DNA of 62,993 nucleotides, filler included, from Cladosporium halotolerans (GCF_011745625.1; 22 parts of 22 records of this genome joined end to end with filler, not necessarily neighbours in it); one strand, 5' to 3'; positions 3,143 to 46,457 are shown, numbered from the whole stretch's first letter. Numbers and translations: made by a program. The notes: generated by a model not told the origin, from the letters alone.

Positions 3143-4986
3143 AACGCGAGGACCTGCATCAGAACCCAATTTCTGGAGGGCTAGATAGGCCTCTGGAAAG
3201 GAGGGAACGGATGGGGAGACCAACAGCGGATAGCTTCAAGCTTAACAGTCGATACCTAAAACGTGAGCACGTCTTCAGCAGGCTGGGAAGCACTGGAAAT
3301 GAACGGTATCCCAGTACTTTCTTGTTTTGGAGGGACATTGCTCAGTGCTGCTGGCGAACAGAGGCCAGATGGGTGCTTGCTCCGGCTCATCAGGAATACA
3401 ACAATGCGTCCAACTATAATGACCGAAGAGCACGGGCTCAAGATGAAGATCAACGTAAGCGCCAAAGACGTCGCCGCATACGAGAGGATGGCATCGGAGC
3501 AGAACTGACAAAACAACGAGCTATGGCTCGCAATGCACAGCATCGCGGGTCAGAACCAAGGGCAAGGAGATTGGCCGAAGGTGTAGGCACGTCAGTCTTG
3601 ACACCGCGCACCCAAGAAACCTGCGAAGGGAGCGTTTCAGTTCTGGAGGACTCTATTCAAAAGTTTCTCAGAGATGTTCCAGAAACATCTTCACAAAACT
3701 CGCAGCTCAGCGGCAGCGACGACGAAAAGATGGAAGATAAACAATCAGACCATGCTGCAGAGGATCATCTCGGCCCATCGTCAAGCTCCGTAGAGAATTT
3801 GGGGCGGAAAGATGGGGAGGAACTGTTCCGAAGGCGATCAGAAGGCCCATGTACTGGAAGATATCACCTACTAAACCTCGAAGGTGATAGGGACGAGATG
3901 AGATTTTCTGTCGAACCTCTGAAACCGAAAGCCAGACATTCTACTGACAGCTTGGAACGGTCTTTGTGTTCTCAACGCGACGCTGTTGGGGCGGGTGATG
4001 CAGCACAAGACCAAGTCCATAGCGAACAAGAGATATTCGAGGATGATGACAATAAGACAGGAGATGTCATCGCTGATTATCTACACTCGGGCGCCAACGA
4101 CGAATGTGCCCCAATCTCCCGGACATCGTCGGTATACTCCTTCGAAGAAGACTCAATCAACGAAGCCAGACGGGTAGAGTCTCATACCCTGAACGATTTT
4201 GCAGCGCTCAAAGAGTATGGACTGAACAGTGAGACGCCAAAAGATGAGAGTGCTACTGGTGATGAAAATCAGAATCTGGAACTGCGTAAGCGCGATAAAG
4301 ACAAAGCCGCCACGGAAGACAGTGTGAGGATCCCACAGCGTCCACCGCAGGTCTTTAGACAAGAAGATATTGCAGATCGTACAGTTGAAACTCCGATGAT
4401 CCTTATAAGGCCTGCTAGCTTCGATAGTGCTACAGCACAGGATCCAGGGACATTCACGAAGCAGAGTGATAGAGGATTGCCCGAGCCAGAGAGGCCTGAA
4501 GCGAGCGGAAGCACGCTCTTGGGGCCCGACCCTAACAGGCCGATAACTCAGATATTCCTGAGCTCAGAATTTGACCCGATAGGTAACAGAGGTAAACAGA
4601 AAGGGGCCATCGTCAGTGAAACACAGACACCAGCCAGGGATCGCGTTCCTTCTGCGGCCCTTGAAGTCGACAAGAGTAGCAAAGAGCAATCCGAAAGTGC
4701 AGAGTCAAAGCAGAAGGATTACGTTCCATTGACAAGATCCGAGATGAATCTATCATCGGTGGAGCATGGGTCTCAAAGTGGGTCTCAAAGTGGACACAAT
4801 TTGCTGCATCAACATCTCAATAGCCCGAACGCAGATGGAGCATCGAGCTCGGGGCCTCAAAGCAACCGATTGACTCAGATTGCCTTGAGGGAGGGCATTA
4901 CTCCCCTGGGCCTGACAGATATGGCTGGTAAGAAGCGAAAGCGTAAAGAAAACGAAGGCTTCAAGTTCAAGCCTCGACGTCAGTAG
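3143..4986 (+). CDS. Hypothetical disordered protein with a C-terminal NLS-like motif; the 5' end abuts the hAT terminus
   Basis: >600 open codons rich in S/E/D/Q, ending GKKRKRKENEGFKFKPRRQ. No domain recognised. Confidence 0.35.
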
Positions 4987-5420
4987 TAAAAGGTTAGCTA
5001 AATGCGTGTGATACCATCATGCGTCGGTATTTCCAACTCGAATCTTTCGATGGTGCATCAGACCTCATGGTCCTTGAAAAGAGCGTTGCTGTCGCTTACG
5101 AATGTGAGAGCGCAATGCAGTCGACCACGGCACTATGTGCAGCACACAGTATGTATCAGATCAGATAACGTTACTGTAACTGACGTTAGCTCGATAATTT
5201 AACAATTGTGCAGCTGGAGAGTTCCACGTGTTGAAAGCTGAGGATGCTCAGACCCCTAGCTTCACCTACCTCCTCCTCATGAGCACTGAAGGCTGGGATG
5301 CAGGGACACCCAGCCTCTCCAGCCTCTCAGCCTTGAGAGAATGCTGGTATATGTACTCACCTCCTGTCTGCTCAGATAGCTAAAACAATCCAATTTCATC
5401 TATTATTGTTAATACCACGG

Positions 5421-5977
5421 TTTTTTTTTGGTTTTTTTGTAATCATATTGTATACAAGCTGTTCAGCTTATGACAAGCCCGGGCTAATCTCTAGACGAAT
5501 CTCTTGGTCTTCTATCTGTGCTCCTGCGTTGGTGTCATTCCTTCGATCCTGCTCGCCATCCCGACTTAGTCAAGTCGCCACGGGTTTTGGGCTCAGCGCC
5601 CTCATACTAGCTTGTCTTTGGTTTTGCCACATCCTCTCTCGCCGTCTGCACTCATCTCGCCTCCTCCCTGCTAAAGTTTTCTCTCATCGTCCGTGTCCCC
5701 CCGGTCGAGCAGACCAATGTCCCACTCGTCGATCTCTTGTGTGTTGTTCGCCTCTGTCTTTTCGCCGACTGCTGTGCACTCGATGAAACGCAATACTGCC
5801 TCGACCGCTGTCTCCCCGAACAGGGCCAGTAGGTCTTGCTCATTCCTTCTAGCCGATATCTTGATCTTCTTCGCTTCGAGGGCACGCAGCATCTGCTCTC
5901 GCTCTCTTCTCCATTTGCGACACTTGAGCATCAGATGTGCCACGCTCTGTCTGCTGTCATCACACCACCAGCATCGG
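5421..5977 (-). mobile_element. Tad1-like LINE 3' end (ORF2 C-terminus 5977-5671, 3' UTR, poly(A))
   Basis: RCWWCDDSRQSVAHLMLKCRKWRREREQML is a CCHC finger close to the end of the RT ORF at 29550-29650. An A-rich tail lies at 5421-5438. Confidence 0.9.
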
Positions 5978-10850: not shown

Positions 10851-12083
10851 TTCGTGCCCAGGCCATGCACTTTTGGCCCTTTCCCAAATCCGACAATCTA
10901 ATCTCCGTACACGTGCTGAATGCGATGACGTTGGTGTCGTCTACGAAGTCGTCGCAGAGGCGGCTTGTCCCTCGATTGGGCACAAAGCTTGCATCTTTGA
11001 CGGATCCGGCGAGTGGCGGTCTGCCTCATCCAACAATGAGTTTTGTCGTCGCAATAATTCCTGCGCTAGCGGACTACCCCTCAGCCGTCGCGTGCGGCCT
11101 CTGCACCGCAACGAAGCGTAAGTCGGCGACCCTCGCCGGCACGCCAGCGAGCTGCACATACGGCGCTGGTCGTAGAGTACGTATGAGTCGACAGTGTCCT
11201 GTCTCTTGCCTAGCTCGCTTGCACATCCACTGGGCTTCTTGTCTTCCAAGTGTCCCTATCTCCGTCCATCTTTTTCAATCAACCAAGCGGCGGGCGCTAG
11301 GGGCAATAAGCGCTGGGCCGACCTCGGGCCCAAGACGACGGTTTTTAGTAGGCAACAGTCAGATAATATCCTGACGGCCATAGTACCTAGTCCGTGGAAT
11401 TTCTTGACCTTGTTCGACAATGTTCGTTCTGTCTCTCCAGGTCAGCTTGCTTCCCAGATATGACTCTTACCTCTACCAGGGTGCGCCACCCAGTAAGAGA
11501 GGCAAACCCACCGACAGGCGAGACTTTCCGAGCTTCCGCGTAGTACCCCAGTGCTAAAGAGATAGATGTATGTGGTAGATGGCACTTGTGGCTGAAGTCG
11601 TCACCATTCACGCTGCGCTCCGCCGCCTTCACCCAAAAGGCGCGCTGCCGTGGCTGGAGCTTTTGGCACGTTCGCACCTTCGTCCAAGACGAGAAGTATC
11701 ACGTGTCTTCGTCTGCGAAGGACTAGAAGAAAGAGTGGGCTTGTCTGCGTCCCTCGCTACCCTACGCACTATACTGTATTTGGCTCCTGGGAGGAAGCGG
11801 GGGCTGGGAGGGCGAATTCTCCCTCCCGTTGCTGCTGACTGTGCCGAAAGACTCAAAAGGAGTGCCCTCCGAGACTTAGAAGTCTTCCCTGACTCGTGCA
11901 CATCCCTGGCTCGTGCACACTGCTTTCGCGTCGTGACCATCACCTTCGCACTATTACATCTTGACGTAAACACATNNNNNNNNNNNNNNNNNNNNNNNNN
12001 NNNNNNNNNNNNNNNNNNNTTAATTAATTAANNNNNNNNNNNNNNNNNNNNNNNNNNNNNNNNNNNNNNNNNNNNTCGAAGCG

Positions 12084-12200
12084 GAGCGTTACAATTCGAG
12101 GCCGGAATAGGAAATCCCCGCCAAGAGCGTTACAATTCCCGCTGAAAAGGGGAGTCGCTTTGGGGTAGAACTATAACAGTATTATAGGCAACTATAATAC
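12084..12200. repeat. Two 14-bp direct repeats and a perfect 9-bp hairpin upstream of a large ORF
   Basis: GAGCGTTACAATTC at 12084-12097 and 12125-12138; GTATTATAG-GCAA-CTATAATAC at 12179-12200. Confidence 0.85.
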
Positions 12201-12245
12201 ATTCCGTCCAAACCTTATTCTGAAGTGCCTATCACAGCAACAAAA

Positions 12246-14954
12246 ATGGCATCCAAACGTGGCCGGCCAGTCCTTGACGACAGCGGAGATGCTGCTGTTG
12301 AGCGCCGGCGCATGCAAACACGGGAGCGCGTACGTCAGCTCCGTCAAAGGCAACGAGAAGAACATAATAGAACGACGGCAAGATCCGCCGAGCAACTCGA
12401 ACAAGGCGAACAGATAATAAATCTTACAACCTCCGCCGAAGAAAATGCTGCAGCAACATTATTGCAACTTGGGCTCCGTGTCCACGGAATGAGCCTTCCA
12501 CAAAATTCCGCCGAAGTAGACTGCAACAGAACGCGACAGATGTCGACGAACAACACGATATGTACCAAGAAGAAGAAAGAGCCCGGGACGATATACCGCG
12601 TCAGATAAATTTACCGGAGGGATTCTTCAAGCGATTTGCTGCAGGGCCGAGTCGAGCGCCAAAGGACGCTTCTCGGAATCGATCCTTACTCACAGGACAT
12701 TTCCAGTCGCTCCCAGCAAGGGCCGCCACAGACAACGGAAGGACACGACGTGTGAGTAGTAGTAACCTTAACGGGCCTTTACTACCTTCTCCCATTGCTG
12801 GACCAAGTAGAGCACATTCACAGCCTGAGTCGTACGATGATGTACATTCCGCAGAGAACCAAGAGGGGCCTACAGATACCCAGCAAGAGCAAGCGGGCAG
12901 AGACGAAGGCTTCGTGGACAATGCCATGAGCGACATAGAACATGACTGGAATATCAACCCTCCGGTAGAAGAATTGAGTGATCGCCCGGGCGGAAGCGAG
13001 GATCTCCTAGGCCAAGAGCAGCTTCGTAGCCCAGAGCACAACCGCAGTGACAGTGAATCCCACGTCAGTTTCCAATCGGAGCATTCGCCCTTGCATGGTG
13101 AAGATAGTGAGGATGATGAAGCCACACCCCTTGAGTTCGTGGTCCAGAAGCTTTACGAGGAACTAGTGCACGGTTTCCACGGCTGCACAGAGGAAGAGCA
13201 CGATGAACACCGCAGGCGACATTTGATCGACGTAGGCGATAACCACCACAGCCTTGCAGAGATGTTCAACGACGATACCTTCCCATCTGTGCTGGGTTTG
13301 CAGGAAATGATCACACCCGAGCGTCTCGCTCGGGAGAGGAGGCCGTCAGCTGACCAGTGGAAGTCCATATTCTGTGGCATACCGACCCACGGCCGACAGC
13401 GCTATCCCATCAACTTATGCTTACACGAAGAGCAGAGTCGCGCGACCGACGCCGATGTAGCATTCGACATCGACAGTTTCCTTGGTTTCGCGACGTCGCT
13501 TGCGTTCGCGAAGAAAGGCCTGTGGTCCCAGATCGCGCCGCAAACCAGGCAGAACATCAATGCAGATGTACACATCCGCGACCGCATGTTTACCCCAAAT
13601 GTAGACCCCGAGAGAGCCGACCACTCCAGGCTTGCGATGCTACAGCGCATCCCACACTTCATGCTCGGCCGCATCGAAGGTGCCCACGACATCACCGTCT
13701 ACGTCTTATTCCCACACATTCCGGTACTCGGGGAGAAGTTCAAGTCTCTCAACAAGGAACAGCTCTCCCGATGGGCGGACCGAATATATCTTCCGGCCCT
13801 GCACAAGTTCTACAAGGCTCACTACACGCAGCACATTCCAGCAAGCTTTCAGACGGCCTCCGACAACTCACGAGCGCACAACGTCGAGACCCGACAAGTC
13901 GGAGGGCAGAGCTACAAAGCCAAGCGTGCTGTAGGGTACCACCTTCAACCGGAGTACTTGGATCACGTCTGGGATGATGTATTGACAACGATCGCAACCG
14001 TCCCAGGCCTGGCAGATTTCAGAGACCCCCAGATATTTTTTTCGTCAAAGGGCACGAAGTTGCGGTTCAAGACCAGCGATACTCGACCAAGTCTCGGCGA
14101 CGTAATGCAATACTTTGAAACATTCCTCGAGGACTGTCTCGACCTCGACTTTGTTGAGCTGGACAGGCTCTATGTCGACATCGGGAAAGAGATCTGTCCT
14201 CAAAGTAGTCTGATCATGGGACAGCAGCGACACCTGGATGATGAACCTCAAGTGTATGCTTGGAAGCGATGTTGCCAGGAAAAGTACATGAAATGGATGT
14301 ACGATGATCGTCCTCCGATCCAAGGCGAAGGACAGCGGTACTACACGCAAAACATGCTCTACGACACAGGTTCCCTGACGAGCGTCACCCCAAAGAAGTC
14401 GAGGCACAGAGAGGGAGGCCTCATATACAGCCAGTTCTACAACTCCGTCAAGGAGATCTACGACGCCAACAAGTGCTTCCCGTTCGCGAACGACGCTATG
14501 GAAGAGCTCGCCCTAGACCCCAACATCCGGAACGCAACAAGGAACATACTTGGAGGGGGCCGTCGAGACGCGAAAACCGTCGAGGTGGGGTACTTGGCAA
14601 GTAAGCAACGGACCCATCGTGCACTACGAGACGCACGACAGAAGTCGTACGGCATCCGCGAGGAGCACCGCGTCACGTGGGCTGTGTTTCAGGGAATACG
14701 GGATCGCTTCCGTATCGAGGGCACAAGACAGCCAGTGATGCTTCTGGACGAATGCCCTTCTTACTCATGGGCAATCAGAACTGAAGTGTACGTCGACTTC
14801 TTGTGGCGCAGTGTGGACAAATTCGCCGCCGGATTCGAGATTGTCAAAGCCCGCAGCCGTAAGGACTTCACCACCTGGGAGCAAACGAAAATGATGGCGA
14901 TGTTTTTGCGCTGTCTCAGATACGTGTGTGGAGGCCACTTGCTTGAACAGGAGG
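12246..14954 (+). CDS. Large uncharacterised protein (>900 aa, 3'-truncated, one apparent frameshift near 12515); possibly from a mobile element
   Basis: ATG at 12246 (MASKRGRP, then a charged helix) shifts into the >800-codon frame. The globular region contains FDIDSF, IPHFMLG, RLYVDIGKE, YSQFYNSVKE, FPFAN..EELALDP and SYGIREEHR. No introns seen. Confidence 0.75.
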
Positions 14955-29549: not shown

Positions 29550-32209
29550 CGTAGCATCTTGTCTCTTTGTCTTCGCCACTTCCGACACTCTAGCATGAGG
29601 TGTGCGACTGTCTGCCTGCTACTGCCGCACCACCAGCAACGTGCGTCTTTGACTTTGCCGATTCTCAGCAGGTAAGCGCCTGTGATGGCGTGGCCTGACT
29701 TGAGCTGTAGGTATCGCGCGGCGATTGATTTTCTCGACTCTTCGATGTACTTATTGTGTTTAGTCCGTAGCTTCCACCTCCCCTTCACTGCTTGCTTCAC
29801 GTACGACAGCGACGCTGACCGTACTACTTTAGGCTGCTGCTTCGCTGCTCGTTGCGCCGCGGCGTCGGCAAACTTATAGCCTTCGTAATGGTCGCGATTT
29901 GGGAGCCATGTCAAAGTGACCCGGCCCCCAGCGTCTTCAACTTTCGACGTGTGTTCTCTAATGTCTGTGACGACTGGCAGGGTCCAGTCTCCAGTTTTCT
30001 CAAAAGCGGCCAGCGCCAGCCGTGACTCCGTCACAATTTCAGCGGAGTAGTGATCCGCTCTCAAGAGAATTTGGACTAGGCTTTCCATGACCATGTCGAT
30101 GGCGAACAGCGTGGCATCGGCTGCAGTGATGTATTTGCCCAGCGAAGACGTCTTGGTCTTCCACGCCCGTCGCTCTCTCCATGCGACCCCCACACCGAAA
30201 CTGAAATCATTGACCGTGCTCACAAACAGTGTTAGCTGCTGTGGACTGTCAGGTAGCATTCTCGTTGGCAGTTGCGAGTAGTTCAGTGTCCGAGTCACAG
30301 GGTTCGTTCCTCGCGAGGTTGCCTTACAAGGCAGGTTGAATCCATACTCGGTGTCGTAGCTGACGTGCCTGACGATCTGCTGGGCAAGTCTGCTTCCGAA
30401 AGATCGATGTGTCTTCTCAGGCGTCGACCACCCGGTACTGGATGGTTGGCCTGTCGCGCCTTCATGTCGGTAGATCTCACCGAAGCGGAAGTTGGCAGGT
30501 AGCAGTTGGTGTGTTGCGTGGTCCCCGTTCGCCTTTAGCGCGCGTGTGGCGTACCTGGTCTGACGGTAGTCAAGCAGTTCCCTAGCACAAGGTAAACGAG
30601 CGTCTTGCTGGAGTAAGGGCAGAGGCGTCGACTTCAGCAAGCCGGTGATGGCTCTAGCTTGTTTGTTCAACAAGAGTTGCAGCTTCTCCGCTCGATCTCG
30701 TTGGCCCCTCCACCAGATCTCCGCTCCGTATAGTGCCACAGAGGTCACTGCAGCCACCACTATCCTCCGCATCAGCCTAATGGGCAAGCCGCCGTTGCTT
30801 CTGCTAAGGCTCGACATCCGCTGCAGGGCTCCTTTCGCGCTTGCCAGTCTGTTCTCGAAATGCGTCCTGAATGAAAGCTTCGGATCGAGCCAGAAGCCGA
30901 GCCACTTAGTCGCTCCCTGCTTGATGGCGAAAGTTCGATCTCCGATATCAACGGTCACATTTTTGGCTGCGTTCAGCACTTTCCGACGTCTGCTAAACAG
31001 CAGAACCTCGGTCTTACTGACTTCGAACTCGACGTTGTTCTCTGATCCCCACCGGAGCGCATCTCTGGCAATGCGTTCGAGATTACTCGTTCCCTCCACC
31101 AGTTTGTCGCATTCAATCACCAATCCTACATCGTCAACAAACGGGAGGGCTTGGGCTGTCGGGTGTCTGTCTTCGAGCCACTGGAACATGGCGCTGATGG
31201 AAAAGATGAACAACACCGGCGACACTGGTGAGCCTTGCGGCAGACCAGCCTTGGTGCTTCGAGTTTGACCCGTCCGTCCATCGATTACCAGCATTGCTTG
31301 CCGATCCGACAGGAATGAGTCGACCCAGCGCACAAGGTTGCCGACGATGCCGGCTTGTATCATCCGCTTCAGCAACTGCGGTTTGCTAACTCGATCGAAA
31401 GCCCCCTTCACGTCCAGTAACAGAGCCAGAGCTGTATGTTTAGTGCTCCATGCAGTTTCGACTTTTGTGACCAGCTGTGCCACGGCGTCTGATGCACATT
31501 TTCCTCGCCGACACCCGAATTGCCCCCGGTGAAAGACTTCGTTCTTCTCACAAAAGGAGGCGATCCATGTCGCGACTGCCTTTTCCACCACCTTACCAAG
31601 ACAGCTCAGTAGACTGATAACCCGGTATGCTTTCGCAACTGTGTACGTCGGCTTTCCAGGCTTGCGTAACAAAATGCCTTTTGCGGTCTTCCAAGTGCAA
31701 GGGTGGAATCCCGTCTCGACGCATCCTCGGACGAGAGCTACGATACGGCCTTCTGCCCACCGCCACAGCAGCCTGAGTGCTTTGAAGCCAATGCCGTCCA
31801 CGCCGGGAGCTTTCTTGACAGACTGAGCGAACAGCGCTTCGCGGACCTCACGCGCACTCAAACCTGCCCTGGAGTCTGGAAACTCGATATCTTCCTCAAT
31901 TTCCGCCTGAGATGGAAAGGCCTGCGCCATGAAGACCTCCTCTTTCTCCTCAGCAGTCGCTGCTATCTGGTCAGGCTGGCCGTGCGAACCACTGATCTTG
32001 ATCGCCGGTGTGTGTGATGGCACTTGAGATTTAGTGTATCTGAGTGCTCTCCAGCATCGCTCAGGGTCAGGTGCGAGTTGGGACTCTTCGTCGGTTGGGA
32101 AGACGCCCTCAAGAAAGCGCTCCCAAGCCAGTCGCTTGGCTCTTCGAATATATCGATAGTATTCGTTTCTTACTTGACGGTATTCGTCAAGGCTGACCCG
32201 GCCAGGCAC
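29550..32209 (-). mobile_element. Tad1-like LINE ORF2 (RT, degenerate RNase H-like region, CCHC), 5'-truncated
   Basis: KAPGVDGI, YRVISLLSCLGK, QFGCR, LLDVKGAFD, GLPQGSPVSP, FVDD, KWLGFWLD and RCWWC..AHLMLEC. The frame is open for ~885 codons. Confidence 0.96.
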
Positions 32210-32403
32210 TGCAGTTTTTCCCTACGACATATGGTTCGAGATCTTCGCACTATAGCACACACTTTTTTCGCCACGGTGATGGTGGTATTGGCAGCCACTC
32301 ATANNNNNNNNNNNNNNNNNNNNNNNNNNNNNNNNNNNNNNNNNNNNTTAATTAATTAANNNNNNNNNNNNNNNNNNNNNNNNNNNNNNNNNNNNNNNNN
32401 NNN

Positions 32404-43768: not shown

Positions 43769-44697
43769 GCATTATTGTACAGGAGAAGGTCACCAGCATT
43801 GTGCAGGAGCAGGTAACGGCGATCGTCGAGAAGAAGCTCTCCAGCATCCAACAGTCGAGTCCGAACCCATCGTATGCCGATATCGCGCGGACACCACCCG
43901 GAAGCCGTCCTAGCAACTTGAGAACAATCTCCAACCAGACAACCCCATCGACTTTCACTGACACGTTGTACTGCACCGTGGACGTGGCCAACGTGGAGGA
44001 AGCGGATAGGGACAATGCGAGCGCGAGCAAGATCAGGCAGGAGATCGAGAAAGAGATGCGCGGAGGAGAGGAAGGAAACAGTTGGCGGTGCGTGGCGGTC
44101 ACAAGGGACCCTCGCAATATCGCTCGCGTCCGCATCACATGTCGAGACGAGAGCGAGCTCGCGCGGGTGAAGGAGGCAGCTGAAAAGACCAAAACGGCGG
44201 GATCGCGCGTGCTGCGGGACCAGTGGTACCCGGTCAAGGTAGATAATGCATGCCGGACGGCGGTGTTGGACGAGTGCGGCGAGCTTCGAACGGGAATCGT
44301 GGAGATGCTGGAAAAGGAGAACGAGGTTAAGATTGCGAGAATTTCATGGCTCAGCCGGAAGGATTTGCCGAAGGCATACGGGTCTATGGTCGTGTACGTG
44401 ACCAAGCGCGCAGACGCAGCAAAGCTGCTGGAGGGCCAATACTTCATTGTAGACGGAGAGTCGGCCTTCACACGGGTCTTCGAGCCCAAACTGGGCCCGA
44501 TGCAGTGCTTCAGGTGCCTGGGTCTCGGGCACAAGGCCTCCTCGTGCACGAAAGCACAGCTTTGTAGCAGGTGCGCTCAGCCGGGTCACCGCCACAGTGA
44601 ATGTCAGGCAGAGAACCCAAGATGTGCTTTATGCGACGGGGCGCACAAGTCGCCCAGCCGCCAATGTCGTACTCTCTACCCAGCGAGCGATGTGTAA
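43769..44697 (+). CDS. Tad1-like LINE ORF1 (gag-like, three Cys/His knuckles), 5'-truncated
   Basis: SYADIART, VLRDQWYPVKVDN, YGSMVVY, CFRCLGLGHKASSC, CSRCAQPGHRHSEC and CALCDGAH...C. Confidence 0.95.
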
Positions 44698-46457
44698 GTC
44701 GATGCAAGTCCTACAACTGAACATGCAAAAGCGGCGAGAGGTTCAGCACAGCGTGATGAACGACGAGCGTCTGGGGGGCTATGCGGCCCTCGTCGTAAGC
44801 GAACCCTACGTTTTCGAAATGGAAGGCAGGGTGAGAACGAGTCCGATGGGACATCACTGCTGGACGGCCATCCTGCCGAGCGAGAGGCACAGCGGACGTT
44901 GGCCGGTGCGAAGCATGCTATGGGTGCGCAAAGACATCGAGTGCGAGCAGGTGAGTGTGCCATCGGCAGATCTCACAGTGGTCCTGCTGCGACTGCCGGA
45001 CAGGTCAGTACTACTGGCGTCAGTTTACGTTGAAGGAGGAAGCGTTGCAGCTTTGGACGAAACGATGAGGCTGCTCGACGACGCTATAAGCGAGGCGCAA
45101 CACAATGGTGGACCGCGCCTCGATATTGTGGTCGCTGGCGATTTCAATCGACACGATCAATTGTGGGGAGGAGACGAGGTCCTGCCGAGCCGACAAGGGG
45201 AGGCGGACCTTATCATTGACTTCATGAATAGATGGAGCCTCGAGAGCCTACTGCCTCGCGGCACCAAGACGTGGCAGAATGCAACGCGGGCTACCACGAT
45301 CGACCTCATGTTGGCATCGCAGGAAATGGCGTCGAACATTCTCAGGTGCAAGATCCACGACACAGAGCACGGGTCGGATCACCGCGCGATCGAGACGTCT
45401 TTTGACGTAGACGTCCCAGATCATGCTACCCAACCGCGGTTATTGTTCAAAAATGCTCCCTGGAAAGCGATCCGAGAGCGCATTGCTCAAGCGCTACAGG
45501 ATCGGCCAGCGTGTGGCGACGTCCAGACACAGGCCGACCGTCTGATGCAGGCTGTGCTGGACGCGGTCAGCACGCTGACGCCCAGAGCCGAGCCGTCACC
45601 GTATGCCAAGCGGTGGTGGACGAAGGATCTCACGAAGCTCCGCCGTGTATACACATACTGGAGGAACAGGGCGCGTGCGCAGAGACGAGGTGGAGGGGCA
45701 CTCCCGGAGCTGGAGCGACAGGCGCGAGCGGCAGCGAAGGAGTACCACGATGCAATACGCAAGCAACAGAGACTGCACTGGGACGAGTTCCTGGCGGAAG
45801 ACACCAACATCTGGAAGGCCACCCGTTACCTCAAGCCAGACGAAGAGGCGGGGTGGTCCAAGATCCCTCCATTACGGAAGGCGGGCGGATCCACGACGAC
45901 TAATAATTCCGAGCAAGCCGAACAGTTGCTCGCTACTTTCTTCCCACCACTACCCGATACTATAGAAGACGAGGGGGATCGACCACAAAGGCAGCCGGTT
46001 CCCACGCCGGCGCTGACCGTGGAAGAGATCGAGTCCTGCCTTACGAAGACTAAGCCCTGGAAGGCCGCAGGCGAAGACGGCCTCCCAGCAGGGGTGTGGA
46101 GGCAGGTATGGCCGGCTGTGAGTGAAAGTGTCCGCCATCTGTTTCAGACGTCCCTCGACACGGGATCGATACCTCAGCAATGGAAAGTCGCAAAGATAAT
46201 CCCGCTCAAGAAGCCGAACAAGGGTGACTATACCCTGGCGAAGGCGTGGAGACCCATCTCACTGCTGTCAACGCTGGGAAAGTTGCTGGAGGCGGTCGTC
46301 GCAGAACGGATCTCGTTCGCGGTAGAGACTTACGGGCTGCTGCCAACCAACCACTTCGGCGCTAGGAAGCAGAGATCGGCGGAGCAGGCACTGCTGCTCC
46401 TCCAGGAACACATTTACACAGCTTGGAGGAACAAGAAAGTGGTTAGCTTGGTCAGTT
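44690..46457 (+). CDS. Tad1-like LINE ORF2 (APE endonuclease and start of RT), 3'-truncated
   Basis: QLN, SEP, GDFNRHD, TIDL and GSDH; then KAAGEDG, WRPISLLSTLGKLLE and HFGAR. The ATG at 44690 overlaps the end of ORF1 by 8 nt. Confidence 0.96.

Follow-up and report, generated by a model that had tools for sequence, protein, structure and literature searches.

The window analysed here is a stretch of 62,993 nucleotides from Cladosporium halotolerans (GCF_011745625.1), in which 22 contigs of 2,628-2,943 bp follow one another in order of descending size, separated by 100-nt linkers of the form N...TTAATTAATTAA...N. One of these contigs, at positions 12076 to 14954, carries a gene from an undescribed family of the Pezizomycotina; this copy has a frameshift and is cut short by the assembly. 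The family is conserved and under purifying selection, and in the relatives of the window copy its genes are linked to telomeres and to genes of the telomere-linked helicase (TLH) type, bear the marks of repeat-induced point mutation (RIP) and are preceded by a characteristic upstream motif. In the explanation that we favour, with middling confidence, these genes make up a new telomere-linked family of filamentous ascomycetes that does not encode helicases; it has an architecture resembling that of the TLH genes and of the yeast Y' element and spreads by subtelomeric recombination. The protein would then be a DNA-binding enzyme, and the window copy would itself have a subtelomeric place.

The extent of the family was established by protein searches. 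A word-indexed search returned 117 relatives at E <= 1e-3, mostly of 1,150-1,260 aa, the best of which (P0001, 1,204 aa) is 98% identical, and an exhaustive search of 1.84 billion cluster representatives at 50% identity gave 942 matches at E <= 1e-3, 602 at 1e-10 and 259 at 1e-30. With 117 relatives and 942 clusters, the protein is not the orphan that an earlier note on this DNA had taken it to be. The named members come solely from the Pezizomycotina, their carriers being Hortaea werneckii, Verruconis gallopava, Cladophialophora immunda, Elasticomyces elasticus and Cladosporium fusiforme, and further Tuber indicum, Orbilia oligospora, Fusarium mundagurra, Clonostachys rosea and Emmonsiellopsis sp. 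The cluster that contains P0001 includes a protein of H. werneckii, one cluster at 90% identity holds 137 sequences, and many truncated forms were found among the relatives. A profile search with the alignment of divergent members added merely two new proteins. No fused form exceeding 2,107 aa turned up, which is weak evidence, and the scan of a viral contig collection gave no family relative. A scan of prokaryotes, with one genome per species, gave two matches (L086 and L087), both in bacterial metagenome-assembled genomes (Acidobacteriaceae and Solirubrobacterales). The contig L087 has a GC content of 49% and a catalase gene split as though by an intron, and L086 is a 10.6-kb contig with sparse open reading frames (ORFs); in both cases a fungal contig seems to have been binned wrongly with bacteria, and neither was counted as a prokaryotic relative. 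In the literature, supplements left aside, no description of such a family was found.

The surroundings of the relatives were studied on JGI metagenome contigs, where the best 80 of 140 encoding stretches were kept, giving 79 loci, or 64 independent loci after merging of contigs that are at least 99% identical. Repeats of the type (TTAGGG)n stand at the end of seven of the 79 loci, which are also seven of the 64 independent ones (L003, L007, L029, L034, L036, L038 and L072). In all seven the telomere lies downstream on the sense strand of the gene, at distances of 5, 603, 1,346, 1,993, 2,536, 7,234 and 9,505 nt, and CCCTAA repeats lie upstream in no locus. At an assumed rate of 1% for genes this close to an assembled telomere, the probability of finding at least seven such loci among 64 is 4e-6. 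Identity to the query ranges from 28% to 76% across these seven, a span that argues for a family-wide telomere habit. In L034 the repeats are joined straight after ...LREGGLLYSQFYS (...GGLLYSQFYS), within the ORF, and this locus is a chromosome end that was broken inside the gene and then healed. Tandem repeats are present between gene and telomere. As a separate observation, telomere-like degenerate G/T-rich arrays lie just inside the telomere repeats of L003 (positions 5376-5412, (GATGTG)x6) and L007 (positions 5294-5505, (GGTATGT)x31).

A TLH-type gene stands beside the family gene in five independent loci (L049/50, L019/21, L043, L059 and L074-79). This neighbour is large, has an OrsD zinc finger and is located within a few kb; the one in L049 adds the DEAD and Helicase_C domains, and the best PDB relatives of the TLH-type neighbours are RecQ5, RecQ, RecQ1, BLM and WRN. 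INO80/Rad8-like SNF2 genes are found downstream in two further loci. The domain make-up of the neighbours matches that of fungal telomere-linked helicases as given in a preprint (10.1101/2024.02.27.582403).

Two other genes were noted in the vicinity of family members. In L075 (11298-14237, - strand) and L078 (11378-13783, - strand), the family and OrsD genes are followed at a distance of a few kb by a reverse transcriptase gene (RVT_1, E = 1e-32), which is a further sign of repeat-rich surroundings. In L046, whose family protein is a distant member (33% identity), a downstream ORF on the opposite strand (4184-5281, - strand) has a weak match to Tet_JBP dioxygenases (E = 6e-5, below the Pfam cut-off), which could be due to chance. 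Genes of the Tet_JBP type travel with KDZ transposons in basidiomycetes.

The closest counterparts of this arrangement are found among known subtelomeric genes. In Magnaporthe oryzae (PMC1635262), the 3' end of TLH faces the telomere, from +5.5 to -2.2 kb; at one chromosome end the truncation falls within the TLH ORF; blocks of tandem repeats separate the TLH gene from the telomere; and a compound tandem array, which marks the subtelomere boundary, stops 181 bp before the TLH ATG. Compared with TLH as described there and in the preprint named above, the present family is alike in being repeated near the telomere with its 3' end telomere-ward, in its variable truncation, including truncation within the ORF, in being subject to RIP, and in having a tandem array about 150-180 nt before the ATG and tandem repeats between gene and telomere. 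Unlike TLH, it has no helicase, OrsD or 'TLH' domain in Pfam, and most of its loci are not visibly telomeric. The possibility that the family represents the 'TLH domain' without the helicase was considered and rejected, as hhalign against two of the TLH-type neighbours gave probabilities of 3.7% and 0.1%, and the proteins are unrelated.

The Y' element of Saccharomyces cerevisiae (Y'-Help1) is a repeat of the distal subtelomere, about 5-7 kb in size, that has one long telomere-ward ORF and is spread by recombination. Likened to it by description, not by sequence, the contigs of close relatives (L001-L003) are about 5.3-5.5 kb long, with the end of the ORF 1.3 kb before the telomere, whereas Y' encodes a helicase and is restricted to budding yeast. 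In the accessible text of a survey of repeats in Zymoseptoria, the subtelomeric items listed are confined to RecQ genes, Penelope-like elements and one methyltransferase repeat (PMC4522978), and a paper on the chromosomes of Trichoderma reesei reports that no telomere-linked helicase genes turned up (PMC4812632).

The window copy occupies a complete small contig with a linker on either side. The neighbouring DNA belongs to other contigs and is hence uninformative on the flanks, so that any neighbourhood read across an N linker is artificial. Conservation was judged from alignments of 80 relatives and of 28 divergent members (19-26% pairwise identity), and motif counts given out of 125 refer to long members, i.e. 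family proteins of at least 1,100 aa. The features of the contig are as follows.

12076..14954, + strand: single complete small contig of 2,879 bp, with linkers on both sides, spanning the promoter region and three quarters of the gene from its 5' end.
12085-12097 and 12126-12138, + strand: two direct copies of the upstream motif AGCGTTACAATTC, a likely promoter element, the first copy 161 nt before the ATG.
12172..12199, + strand: AT-rich, TATA-like stretch ACTATAACAGTATTATAGGCAACTATAATA, located past the motifs and before the ATG, with a putative promoter role.
12246..12521, + strand: gene start, residues 1-92, with Met-Ala-Ser-KRGRP followed by an Arg-rich, helix-like stretch.
12255..12269, + strand: AT-hook-like KRGRP within the M-x-x-KRGRP start.
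12521..12522, + strand: frame-shifting 1-nt deletion (loss of a T); read through as ...AEVDLQQNATDV..., the sequence agrees with the relatives.
12522..13130, + strand: acidic, Ser/Pro-rich linker, about residues 93-300, poorly conserved according to the conservation profile.
13131..14954, + strand: first two thirds of the conserved core, residues ~300-903 of 1,204, open at the contig end.
13463..13477, + strand: FDIDS, with an invariant D-x-D pair; in 109 of 125 long members.
14165..14191, + strand: RLYVDIGKE, with D invariant and E in at least 90% of members; in 100 of 125 long members.
14270..14275, + strand: Cys-Cys pair in WKRCC, invariant in both alignments (80/80 and 28/28); in 123 of 125 long members.
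14426..14455, + strand: YSQFYNSVKE, with Q and the second Y invariant; Y.Q.Y in 122 of 125 long members.
14651..14671, + strand: GIREEHR, with an invariant R-x-E-x-R; in 103 of 125 long members.

A tblastn search with the full-length protein P0001 placed its residues 1-92 at 12246-12521 and residues 93-903 at 12521-14953, and the frame break at 12521 between these two blocks defined the 1-nt deletion. The two frames differ: that of the ATG covers 12246-12608 (120 aa), and the main frame runs from 12560 to the contig end. The gene has no stop codon, since the contig ends at residue 903 of 1,204, about 300 residues before the stop, and the last ~300 conserved residues are therefore missing from the open core. 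Thus, the single intronless ORF of more than 900 aa described in the earlier note is split by a deletion and cut at residue 903 of about 1,204. Of the overall observation, intactness and orphan status have to be given up, and what stands is that the motifs are real and conserved, with KRGRP, FDIDS, RLYVDIGKE, YSQFYNSVKE and GIREEHR located exactly where they had been placed. Scans of the contig revealed no RNA family, tRNA or terminal repeat.

Sequence reads were examined in the run designated X1, which contains 98% of sampled 31-letter words of the stretch and is probably its source, and in two other runs, X17 and X21. Contigs of X1 have the deletion at 12521 at a depth of 61, without an alternative, and an extra T that restores the frame is present in X21 (2 of 2 reads) and in one contig of X17. 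At least two sequence variants of the gene exist in X1: between 14173 and 14367, a contig identical to the window has a depth of 59.5 and the other variant, which is ~9% different (18 differences in 195 nt), a depth of 41. Branching contigs are present in X1.

Full-length members of the family are intronless and about 1,200 aa long; conservation is poor over the first ~300 residues and high across a single long core, residues 300-1200. In the numbering of P0002, which is used for all conserved positions, the residues H296, H303, C369, H371, D385, D387, H420, H448, E525 and K582, and further D622, E626, C653, C654, Y705, Q707, Y709, R782, E784 and R786, are invariant in the 80 relatives. The motifs listed in the earlier note thus go far beyond chance. 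The D-x-D, the K, the D of DIGKE, CC, Q-x-Y and R-x-E-x-R are still invariant in the 28 divergent members. Ka/Ks values of 0.11 for L001/L002 and 0.05 for L010/L017 indicate purifying selection, and together with the invariant residues display the pattern of an enzyme under selection. The set of D-x-D, K, D..E, CC, Q-x-Y and R-x-E-x-R would point to a metal-dependent enzyme that acts on DNA. A [KR]RG[RK]P motif is present in 67 of the 125 long members and starts at residue 4 in 50 of these 67; Pfam AT_hook gave a weak match in 2 of the 28 divergent members. The N-terminal AT-hook and the basic stretch that follows it are likely the DNA-binding part.

Two minor observations concern the same protein. 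In L004 (909-1184), the variable linker contains a 12-nt coding tandem repeat of about 16 or more copies, similar to GAAAGAGAAGTC, which enlarges the acidic/basic stretch; the linker evolves by repeat expansion. A crude Chou-Fasman-style estimate suggested a mixed alpha/beta core, but it was given no weight.

Searches of domain and profile libraries did not provide a name for the core. Pfam had no domain for the ORF of the window or for 7 + 30 + 5 full-length members, no naming domain for the 28 divergent members at E up to 10, and no match above threshold for 84 overlapping 300-aa pieces from 14 loci. Nothing usable was obtained from PHROGs or NCBIfam, PDB sequence profiles compared with two family alignments gave low-complexity or chance matches alone (E >= 0.5), and no usable match was returned by the ESM Atlas for the whole core or for residues 390-840. 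In line with the earlier note, which saw no motifs of this kind, domains of the DDE, HUH, tyrosine-recombinase and reverse transcriptase families are absent, none having appeared in any Pfam scan. Its idea of an enzyme is supported in part, as the protein looks like one, with invariant acidic, basic and Tyr residues in a 900-aa core, and belongs to no named family.

The upstream motif AGCGTTACAATTC has two exact matches in the window contig versus 0.12 expected, and the second copy (12126-12138) is embedded in the extended form CGCCAAGAGCGTTACAATTC. The core of the motif sits in a 21-nt unit, (A/G)TGCCAAGAGCGT(G/T)ACAATTC. The exact 13-nt core was found in 14 of the 79 loci, in 13 of these on the strand of the gene, and when up to two mismatches were allowed there were 72 sense and 19 antisense matches in all loci and the window contig taken together. 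The clusters upstream of the gene consist of 2-6 copies each, all in sense orientation. Among the 12 loci with a placeable M-x-x-KRGRP start, the first copy is located 145-176 nt before the ATG in ten, and at 665 and 1,450 nt in the other two. L019 and L029 have diverged 22-nt arrays at the same distance from the ATG, and 58 nt of the 5' non-coding DNA of the window copy match L005 at 83%, though the proteins are only ~55-57% identical. The fixed distance from the ATG, the single orientation and the AT-rich, TATA-like stretch that follows argue for a promoter element and not a recombination site, and the 21-nt array is probably the promoter control element of the gene. It may be speculated that the AT-hook and basic head of the protein itself bind to this array. 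Arrays of another kind were observed in L012 (3-211 and 4505-4791) and likewise in L013, where the gene lies between same-orientation arrays of a 15-nt unit, similar to GCACCTCACAGGCGT; in L012 each of these adjoins a 20-nt palindrome similar to TCATCAACAATTATTGATGA.

The family behaves in several respects as repeated DNA. Strong RIP signatures were present in L036, L037, L038 and L047, with a TpA/ApT index of 1.5-2.0 and a (CpA+TpG)/(ApC+GpT) index of 0.01-0.67; the respective indices of the window copy are 0.69 and 1.08. RIP-mutated copies imply duplication. L036 and L038, which are two telomeric ends from one metagenome, have a common 9-kb block at 95% identity, and L047 contains a tandem second copy. 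These findings, along with the 137-member cluster and the branching contigs in X1, lend partial support to the multicopy half of the earlier proposal of a multicopy mobile element, whereas for its other half, the ends of a transposon, the data gave nothing.

The gene would pass from one chromosome end to another through recombination or break-induced copying and not through transposition between fixed termini. Several points weigh against a telomere-linked gene. The background rate of telomere-ending contigs (1%) was assumed, the loci of the relatives are metagenome contigs, and just seven of the 64 independent loci are visibly telomeric. Ordinary genes are among the neighbours, namely F-box/LRR (L005), an MFS transporter (L022), a histone (L043) and catalase (L087), and the window contig has no telomere repeat. 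Lastly, the variants seen in X1, at least two in number, could be the two homeologues of a hybrid diploid, a condition known from H. werneckii.

Three other explanations were weighed. The one that survives best, though unlikely, is that a new superfamily of autonomous DNA transposons is represented here, with the protein as transposase; the element would prefer chromosome ends for insertion, and D385/D387, D622 and E784, for example, would form a DDE-like site with long spacers. The long intronless ORF with an N-terminal AT-hook is what such an element would have, and the many near-identical copies, as in the cluster of 137 sequences, the many contigs of just 4-8 kb, the truncated and RIP-mutated copies, and the presence of transposons (hAT and two reverse transcriptase elements) and a PIF1 helicase on other contigs of the window are also in its favour. 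Invariant carboxylates and a probable DNA-binding hook at the N-terminus are shared with the DDE/integrase-core (RNase H-like) proteins; the D-x-G-K-E motif is reminiscent of the second-Asp motif of integrase cores, and YVDxGKE resembles the h-h-D-x-G-x-E-F motif of DDE cores of the integrase type. A sub-threshold Pfam match to the integrase-core domain rva_4 (L043:4940-5839, E = 0.0087, 16 bits versus a cut-off of 26) spans the YVDxGKE...CC region. However, this is one match in 84 pieces, for which ~0.7 such matches are expected by chance, and it was repeated in no other member. A candidate integrase-like (DD35E-like) triad, D568/D622/E656 with a spacing of 54/34, was rejected, as D568 and E656 are each kept in merely 11 of the 28 divergent members. 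Hence, unlike DDE/integrase-core proteins, the family has no significant Pfam match, no conserved residues at integrase spacing and no terminal repeats, and hhalign against the hAT transposase of the window finds nothing.

The DNA around the gene also argues against a transposon. Terminal inverted repeats or long direct repeats are absent from six whole-contig loci (L001, L003, L004, L010, L012 and L016) and from the window contig, most loci being limited by their contigs so that the ends of an element could lie outside. Similarity between the diverged copies L001/L016, L070/L074 and L058/L067 stops with the coding sequence, distant members have no conserved non-coding DNA downstream of the gene, and the unit boundaries in L072/L058 showed no clean ends. 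The sole conserved non-coding element is one-ended, has one orientation and a fixed distance from the ATG, and is promoter-like. The termini and target-site duplications that the earlier note had expected from an alignment of copies were thus not found.

It is less probable still, to the point of being doubtful, that the gene is an ordinary single-copy host gene, for example for a chromatin or transcription factor, whose apparent repeats reflect breakage of heterozygous or hybrid assemblies and whose telomeric cases are incidental. Strong purifying selection, the conserved promoter element, the loci amid normal genes and the presence of just about two variants in X1, ~9% apart, are what would be expected of such a gene. 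It is contradicted by the RIP-mutated copies, which imply duplication, by the block common to two telomeric ends of one metagenome and by the tandem second copy in L047, as well as by telomere linkage in 7 of 64 loci with one orientation throughout, repeated linkage to TLH-type genes and the many truncated forms.

The earlier note had itself proposed that the core is a eukaryotic relative of the Rep_trans initiators (PF02486; pT181 RepC/RepD), a nickase or transposase in which nicking by a catalytic Tyr drives a rolling-circle mobile element. The proposal was assessed against pT181 and four other plasmid Rep_trans genes (a 5-row alignment with four distinct sequences), in which the motifs given in the note proved correct, R110-x-D112-x3-D116, Y161-N-K-K-x-E166 and R182-x-E184 being invariant. 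The family has the three motif types (acidic, Tyr and R-x-E) in the same loose order, as R618-x3-D622-x3-E626, Y705-x3-Y709-x3-K and R782-x-E784, and its Y709 and R-x-E are invariant; moreover, unlike ends with no inverted repeats are as in rolling-circle elements, and the upstream direct repeats could be read as iterons. The order of the motifs therefore holds, but their texts and spacings do not: R-x3-D-x3-E takes the place of R-x-D-x3-D, and the motifs are ~85 and ~75 aa apart as compared with ~50 and ~20 aa in Rep_trans. Pfam Rep_trans had no match even at E up to 10, either in the 28 whole members or in the 84 pieces of 300 aa, and hhalign with the family profile gave a probability of 0.18% for pT181 RepC and 0.07% for the 5-row alignment. 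The repeats are at promoter distance from the ATG, and in the 170 nt upstream of the window gene folding does not exceed that of shuffled sequence (z = -1.67), with no origin-like hairpin found there; the 3' end of the unit is absent from the window. The core of 900 aa is threefold longer than the ~300 aa of Rep_trans, and the host is eukaryotic, with the gene in a chromosomal, telomere-linked setting. Homology to Rep_trans is therefore unsupported, and a nickase of this kind is highly improbable.

The remaining contigs of the window were inspected for their coding content. The next contig (15055-17918, + strand) has an ORF, extending to 17018, for a PIF1-like helicase (Pfam PIF1, E = 2e-30, and a Pif1 2B domain), the 5' end of which is lost at the contig start; it may be a Helitron-type or a telomere-related copy. 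A hAT transposase with a dimerisation domain (E = 1.5e-17) is encoded on the contig at 21099-23699 (- strand), a reverse transcriptase on that at 29552-32221 (- strand), and a non-LTR element with zinc knuckle, endonuclease and reverse transcriptase on that at 43771-46456 (+ strand). As judged by these transposon proteins, the small unplaced contigs are repeat-rich.

Returning to the telomere-linked gene family, its protein consists of an N-terminal AT-hook and basic stretch, a variable acidic linker and a 900-aa core forming a putative metal-dependent DNA enzyme. The gene behaves like those of the distal subtelomere, being repeated, often 0-10 kb from the telomere and with its 3' end telomere-ward; a TLH-type helicase gene often adjoins it, and healing of a telomere can truncate it. 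The short tandem array just before the start codon, the 21-nt upstream array, would control the promoter. A more tentative proposal, which we regard as possible but less than probable, is that the distal subtelomere of filamentous ascomycetes has in this family a second component that is not a helicase: a 1,200-aa DNA enzyme of uncatalogued fold that is kept near telomeres beside the TLH helicases, is switched on via the 21-nt array, and acts on chromosome ends, either in their recombination-based maintenance or by copying itself between them. Under this proposal it would be a telomere-linked gene of a new kind, selfish or mutualist.

As far as sequence evidence goes, the false lead of a eukaryotic Rep_trans is removed, and many 'hypothetical proteins', a large block of them in the genomes of Pezizomycotina, gain a name. 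Fungal chromosome ends carry families of RecQ-type helicases, the role of which is still unclear. If the present explanation is true, the family would be a second widespread telomere-linked one, and would provide a new handle on how subtelomeres are built and copied and, possibly, used when telomeres fail.

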